Position numbers and translations under genes: made by a program
NCBI RefSeq assembly: GCF_053078305.1
Contig: NZ_CP166879.1
DNA: 64,000 nucleotides
Reading direction: 5' to 3' (one strand)
The notes under the pieces: model-generated
What the model was told of the DNA's origin: nothing
The model's database searches: none
Seen by the model: the letters and a program-made list of their open reading frames with translations, nothing else
Shown: in pieces, positions 54,896-54,970 of the stretch
Layout of the letters: the number at the start of each line of letters is the position of its first letter
Position numbering within the stretch: the stretch's first letter is position 1

Positions 54896-54970
54896 GGCCC
54901 TTTAGCTCAGTGGTTAGAGCAGGCGACTCATAATCGCTTGGTCGCTGGTTCAAGTCCAGCAGGGCCACCA
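54896..54970 (+). tRNA. ileY: tRNA-Ile2 (anticodon CAU, lysidine-modified type), ileY by context
   Basis: ggccctttagctcagtggttagagcaggcgactCATaatcgcttggtcgctggttcaagtccagcagggccacca; anticodon loop cuCAUaa; acceptor stem looks one pair short (see findings). Confidence 0.8.

Follow-up and report, generated by a model that had tools for sequence, protein, structure and literature searches.

The window analysed here, a stretch of 64,000 nucleotides, is collinear with the genome of Escherichia coli ES5, to which it is about 99% identical, and it is 100.000% identical to contig JPQG01000003.1 (1.42 Mb) of assembly GCA_000736735.1. The corresponding record, JPQG00000000, is that of E. coli strain 48, a subAB2-3-positive STEC isolate from roe deer (PMC5323612). 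The window carries serV-argVYZQ, the gene for the MicA sRNA (23889–23960, minus strand, 83.9 bits with Rfam), a naRNA4/REP-type element (30558–30635, minus strand, 76.4 bits with Rfam) and ssrA, with the tag ANDENYALAA. After serV, four tandem tRNA-Arg(ACG) genes occupy positions 20347–20978, where ES5 has three; the short-read assemblies of relatives are interrupted at these tandem copies. The segment from the ypjA stop codon to the 3' end of ssrA corresponds to positions 62632–62793; ypjA directly adjoins ssrA in strain 48 and in GCA_049627445.1. The island content at ssrA varies between near-identical strains: four sister assemblies have an integrase and prophage-like genes there, and ES5 has a 12.5-kb CP4-57-like island.

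The tRNA gene under study lies between a gene encoding a 750-aa amylase-like protein and the ypjCB and ypjA genes, a position at which RefSeq genomes have an annotated tRNA-Ile gene and at which K-12 has b2652, annotated as ileY, tRNA-Ile(CAU). Its sequence in the window, GGCCCTTTAGCTCAGTGGTTAGAGCAGGCGACTCATAATCGCTTGGTCGCTGGTTCAAGTCCAGCAGGGCCACCA (54896–54970, plus strand, 75 nt), can be divided as follows:

54896–54970, plus strand: ileY, tRNA-Ile2 gene with an encoded CCA, 75 nt against the normal 76 nt (Rfam, ARAGORN, annotated orthologues and alignments)
54896–54902, plus strand: 5' acceptor strand, GGCCCUU; G1 to U6 are paired with 54966–54961, and U7 (54902) is unpaired or part of the 8–9 linker
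54929–54931, plus strand: anticodon, CAT (ARAGORN and sequence)
54961–54966, plus strand: 3' acceptor strand, AGGGCC, of 6 nt against the 7 nt of a normal strand, AGGGGCC or AAGGGCC (alignments)
54962–54964, plus strand: run of three G, the site of the single-base deletion; GGGG in all near-identical relatives
54967–54970, plus strand: discriminator A73 (54967) followed by the genomic CCA (54968–54970), from the sequence

This feature is a genuine tRNA gene. It scores 63.1 bits against the Rfam tRNA model (RF00005), far above the gathering score of 29 (E = 6.6e-14), matches the model from position 1 to position 71 of 71 and displays a full cloverleaf in which the D, anticodon and T arms are intact. 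The acceptor stem comprises six Watson–Crick pairs instead of the standard seven: in the covariance-model alignment, the 3' acceptor strand opens with a one-base deletion (position 66) and pair 7–66 is labelled non-standard, and the cloverleaf predicted by RNAfold has an acceptor stem of 6 bp and an unpaired U7 (−33.2 kcal/mol). ARAGORN also calls a tRNA(cat), with coordinates shifted to 54895–54969 because the upstream A54895 is recruited into the stem; a seven-position stem is obtained in this way only at the cost of an A.A mismatch between A54895 and A54967, so that the fold again consists of six Watson–Crick pairs, here with a three-nucleotide U-U-A linker to the D stem. The label 'Met' that ARAGORN attaches to the gene reflects only the fact that the software is blind to lysidine modification. 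The normal allele with G at position 67 reaches 71.6 bits with the covariance model and −33.8 kcal/mol with RNAfold, which puts the cost of the deletion relative to this allele at 8.5 bits and 0.6 kcal/mol. On the antisense strand, Rfam matches to Plastid-ycf2 (33.4 bits, the gathering score being 65.7) and to sR3 were dismissed, as both fall below the gathering score and overlap the tRNA.

Judged from its sequence and its neighbours, the gene is the chromosomal ileY, encoding the lysidine-dependent reader of AUA, at its usual locus. It combines a CAU anticodon with orthology to annotated ileY in both sequence and synteny, the two features by which we recognize a tRNA-Ile2 gene. Aligned to ileY of XH990 and of O157:H7 TR01, it shows a single difference, CCAGC-AGGGGCC-ACCA in the references becoming CCAGC-AGGGCC-ACCA in the window; on this alignment, the base lost is the equivalent of nucleotide 67, the partner of U6. 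The first-pass annotation, made from the letters of the window, is borne out on these points: it had identified a tRNA-Ile (CAU) of the ileY type, as the anticodon, the annotation of the orthologues and the position of the locus all confirm, and had read ggccctt facing agggcc, then a-cca, with six clean pairs, as do the sequence, the covariance model and the folds. The covariance-model alignment that it proposed as a check (63.1 bits, deletion at 66, pair 7–66 non-standard) points the same way. A reference ileY of identical sequence with a normal covariance-model score, which would have overturned it, was not found: the gene of the references is one base longer and not identical. Note that pair 6–67 of tRNA-Ile2 varies naturally within E. 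coli in a compensatory manner, with C6–G67 in ileX, U6.G67 in most ileY genes and U6–A67 in K-12 ileY; among the loci compared, in which ileX and ileY are mixed and many taxa are represented, AGGGG was found in 135 and AAGGG in 10.

The surroundings of ileY are distinctive. Positions 52000–57800 form a low-GC block (33–40%, against about 50–58% around it) that contains the amylase-like gene, ileY, YpjCB (DUF5507/DUF5508) and a resolvase fragment, and that is followed by the gene for the 1,526-aa autotransporter YpjA/EhaD; this block looks like old horizontally acquired DNA lying on both sides of ileY. A strong terminator-like hairpin is found about 200 nt downstream of ileY (55163–55184, minus strand). 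Given the low-GC DNA on either side, the downstream resolvase fragment and YpjA autotransporter gene, and the island-prone ssrA 8 kb away, one could imagine that a tRNA copy has been duplicated or is decaying where a genomic island joins the chromosome, the gene being for instance the remnant of an att site whose imperfect 3' end was supplied by the element. Yet ileY is full length, with intact arms, and sits at a conserved position, and relatives that have the same downstream sequence (0–2 mismatches over 8 kb) display a normal 3' end; because the downstream DNA of these relatives is identical while their 3' end is normal, no element supplied the 3' half of the window gene. Moreover, a search of the window with the 3'-terminal 24-mer of ileY, allowing up to three mismatches, returned a single match, and thus no second full or partial copy of this end, and no integrase gene lies next to ileY, so that the hallmarks of an island-junction remnant are missing. 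A degenerating copy at an island junction, as suggested in the first-pass annotation, hence fits poorly with a full-length, single-copy gene, devoid of a 3' repeat in the window, whose flanks surround a normal gene in the relatives, and we regard this explanation as highly improbable.

None of the 5,421 records matching an 86-nt probe centred on the site, among 5,426 complete E. coli genomes, reached an identity of 99%; the best complete E. coli matches were all at 98.9%, which amounts to one gap. The exact 24-mer containing the three G, GGTTCAAGTCCAGCAGGGCCACCA, had no match in 100,044 species-representative genomes, nor in the metagenome collection. As a positive control, the 7-nt strand (ARGGGCC) was found at at least 120 loci across Enterobacterales, the matches listed including Citrobacter, Enterobacter, Klebsiella, Pectobacterium, Erwinia, Providencia, Xenorhabdus and other genera. 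Contig JPQG01000003.1 also reads three G, and the copies of the three-G allele that were retrieved (n = 3) all come from this same contig.

Relatives of strain 48 were collected by exact-protein look-ups of the genes flanking ileY; the look-ups with NorV and AlaS, two proteins too widespread to single out close relatives, served as a distant panel only. Six independent assemblies (GCA_018683495.1, GCA_043578865.1, GCA_049627445.1, GCA_018683735.1, GCA_043580205.1 and GCA_043592825.1) turned out to be 99.96–99.99% identical to the window over 8–21 kb, and all six have GGGG at the site. In each of these comparisons, the ileY G is the sole gap and the number of substitutions ranges from 0 to 4. 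GGGG is likewise present in the six further, more distant assemblies that encode the same YpjCB protein, so that the 7-nt strand is present in 12 of 12 independent assemblies of the ileY locus. As far as the deposited sequences go, the deletion is private to one assembly.

These data bear directly on the idea, put forward in the first-pass annotation, that the short stem is a natural variant, i.e. an ileY allele with a 6-nt 3' strand and a working tRNA product, in circulation among certain lineages of E. coli or related bacteria. The polymorphism of position 67, which is G in most strains and A in K-12, does indicate a degree of tolerance to change in that region of the stem. However, the allele is missing from the complete E. 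coli genomes, from the species representatives and from the metagenomes, the control sequence having been found at no fewer than 120 loci, and the 12 independent assemblies, six of them from near-identical strains, uniformly carry the 7-nt strand, with GGGG in the near-identical relatives. Because it is absent from the genomes, the metagenomes and the 12 assemblies, the three-G allele is not a population variant, and we give hardly any credence to a circulating functional allele.

We also assessed the indel accuracy of the assembly across the window. Outside the ileY site, a gap-free alignment to one or more independent assemblies was obtained for every part of the 64 kb: (i) positions 1–13,352 to GCA_049627445.1, with one SNP and no indel; (ii) positions 10,885–24,549 to GCA_021422765.1, with no indel; (iii) positions 21,694–42,758 to GCA_043584345.1, with three SNPs and no indel; and (iv) positions 42,084–62,819 and 54,053–64,000 to close relatives, with the ileY gap only. 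The window contains 873 homopolymer runs of at least 4 nt, 267 of which are of at least 5 nt, and at every run except the ileY site the length agrees with that found in at least one independent assembly. Using ES5 and then the near-identical independent assemblies as references, we found no other private indel within the 64-kb window, and hence no sign there of systematic indel error. Relative to all the near-identical assemblies, strain 48 has private substitutions at positions 41707, 42518 (in stpA) and 62741, two of them intergenic; it therefore lies on a short branch of its own.

Two length differences of another kind deserve mention. In nrdF (34630–34653), four one-base gaps with a net length of zero separate the window from ES5 and two other genomes, though not from the close relatives; as read from the alignment, this cluster is a short divergent patch that does not shift the frame. 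In addition, one of the relatives, GCA_018683735.1, has a 10-nt deletion in pdxR (window positions 38956–38965), with a called product of 387 aa instead of 444 aa; the pdxR copy of the window is intact.

How, then, did the G go missing? The loss of one base from a run of G or C is a typical residual error of a consensus built from long reads only. The change seen in ileY, from GGGG to GGG, is just such a one-base change in homopolymer length and is private to one assembly. The size of the contig (1.42 Mb) in a STEC draft dating from 2014 points to long reads, and sister strains from the same laboratory were sequenced with PacBio only and assembled with SMRT Analysis (PMC5323612); we infer from this that strain 48 probably was as well, and that the gap is a consensus error. 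The missing G would then be absent from the consensus only, as an uncorrected homopolymer-length miscall in a long-read draft assembly, and the real strain 48 gene would be a normal 76-nt ileY with a 7-bp stem (from G1–C72 to U6.G67 and U7–A66). Furthermore, the ileY stem is conserved across an order of bacteria, and a real change would hardly be expected to last there: an artefact is favoured because errors escape selection, whereas real changes in a conserved stem are filtered. On balance, a homopolymer miscall in what is probably a long-read-only draft is the reading we lean towards, with modest confidence.

A real deletion, confined to strain 48, is nearly as likely. On the branch leading to strain 48, replication slippage at the GGGG run of ileY, a dispensable copy of the tRNA gene, would recently have removed one base. 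Several observations speak for it and against a miscall. Firstly, with no other private indel among the 873 runs of at least 4 nt, i.e. no further error of the same kind in 64 kb, the consensus looks accurate. Secondly, the branch leading to strain 48 has three private SNPs in the window, so that real private mutations occur at a similar density. Thirdly, the sole private indel falls outside coding sequence, which is where real indels would be expected to survive. Fourthly, a real lesion would be tolerable, since ileY can be deleted in K-12 MG1655 without complementation, whereas the deletion of ileX requires complementation (PMC11480407). Lastly, the predicted loss in folding energy is only 0.6 kcal/mol, and the covariance-model score, although lower (63.1 versus 71.6 bits), is compatible with a tRNA-like product. 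Against a real deletion stand the presence of the allele in one assembly only, the 7-nt strand being found in the closest relatives and in all genomes and metagenomes searched, as well as the type and context of the change, which match those of long-read consensus errors. We thus consider a real deletion possible but somewhat less probable than the miscall. As to the homopolymer-length sequencing error proposed in the first-pass annotation, it stands as the leading explanation insofar as a G-run changed length in one assembly alone, but finds no echo in the remainder of the 64 kb, where no other private indel occurs.

If the deletion were real, the transcript would be expected to pair GGCCCU with AGGGCC, leaving an extra U beside U8, in the linker spanning positions 7–9, and the mature 75-nt tRNA would have an acceptor/T-arm helix of 11 bp instead of 12. 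The choice of the cleavage site by bacterial RNase P is directed by an encoded RCCA end and an intact G1–C pair; both are preserved here, and cleavage just 5' of G54896 would most likely be unaffected. Pairs 4:69 and 5:68 are identity elements for E. coli TilS, which reads them with a C-terminal domain that lies some 60 angstroms away from its catalytic site (PMC11947777). Counting from the CCA end, C4–G69 and C5–G68 can both form in the predicted fold, where they would lie one base pair closer to the anticodon. The identity pairs for TilS and IleRS would thereby keep their register to the CCA end and be shifted by one base pair relative to the anticodon, and such a shift between 4:69/5:68 and C34 would plausibly lower lysidine formation, hence isoleucine charging. 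On this model, the 75-nt tRNA would probably be a poor substrate for TilS and IleRS. The deletion would be tolerated because ileX supplies tRNA-Ile2, and the cell would rely on ileX. Note that these consequences are predictions from published rules of TilS recognition (PMC11947777). That the deletion is real and that the 75-nt tRNA is nonetheless processed, lysidinylated, charged and used appears unlikely.

Should this last combination hold true, strain 48 would provide a natural case of a bacterial elongator tRNA that functions with an acceptor/T-arm helix of 11 bp, a 6-bp stem and a 3-nt 7–9 linker, and could serve directly to find out how exacting RNase P, TilS, IleRS and EF-Tu are about the length of the helix. 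Should the deletion be real, it would amount to a minor experiment of nature: ileX, together with any prophage-borne copies, would have to sustain AUA decoding in strain 48, and the mutant tRNA could be used to gauge the effect of a one-base-pair shortening of the acceptor stem on TilS and IleRS. The change itself carries little biological weight: ileY is a well-known, dispensable second gene for an AUA-reading tRNA, and the deviation is found in one draft assembly. The practical use of the observation is as a quality flag at about 395,119–395,121 of JPQG01000003.1, to be heeded before the ileY gene of strain 48 is counted as a pseudogene.

Altogether, we are dealing with a known gene from which one assembly deviates privately by a single base, and with neither a population variant nor a new class of tRNA. 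The closest counterpart is the G67 allele of ileY, present in XH990, O157:H7 TR01, ES5 and the near relatives of strain 48, with the same order of the amylase-like gene, ileY and ypjCB/ypjA. All 75 positions of the window gene are identical in this allele, with little or no difference in the flanks; it differs by GGGG in place of GGG, and accordingly has 76 nt, a 7-bp stem with a U6.G67 wobble and a score of 71.6 instead of 63.1 bits. In ileY of K-12 MG1655 (b2652), the gene, the anticodon and the 5' strand GGCCCTT are those of the window, but the 3' strand is AAGGGCC, with a U6–A67 pair; relative to K-12, the window thus lacks one A, and nucleotide 67 is gone either way. The paralogous tRNA-Ile2 gene of K-12, ileX (b3069), is identical to the window gene from position 7 to position 66 and shares its anticodon and its function; it differs by the strands GGCCCCT and AGGGGCC, with a C6–G67 pair, and by its location between mug and nfeF, outside the window, and of the two copies it is the one that K-12 needs for viability (PMC11480407). 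Finally, acceptor stems of non-standard length are known from tRNA-His (8 bp) and bacterial tRNA-Sec (8+5), which likewise depart from the 7-bp acceptor stem. In these two tRNAs, however, the departure is a lengthening, conserved across lineages and served by dedicated enzymes, whereas the stem of the window gene is shortened, shows no conservation and is seen once, in one assembly.
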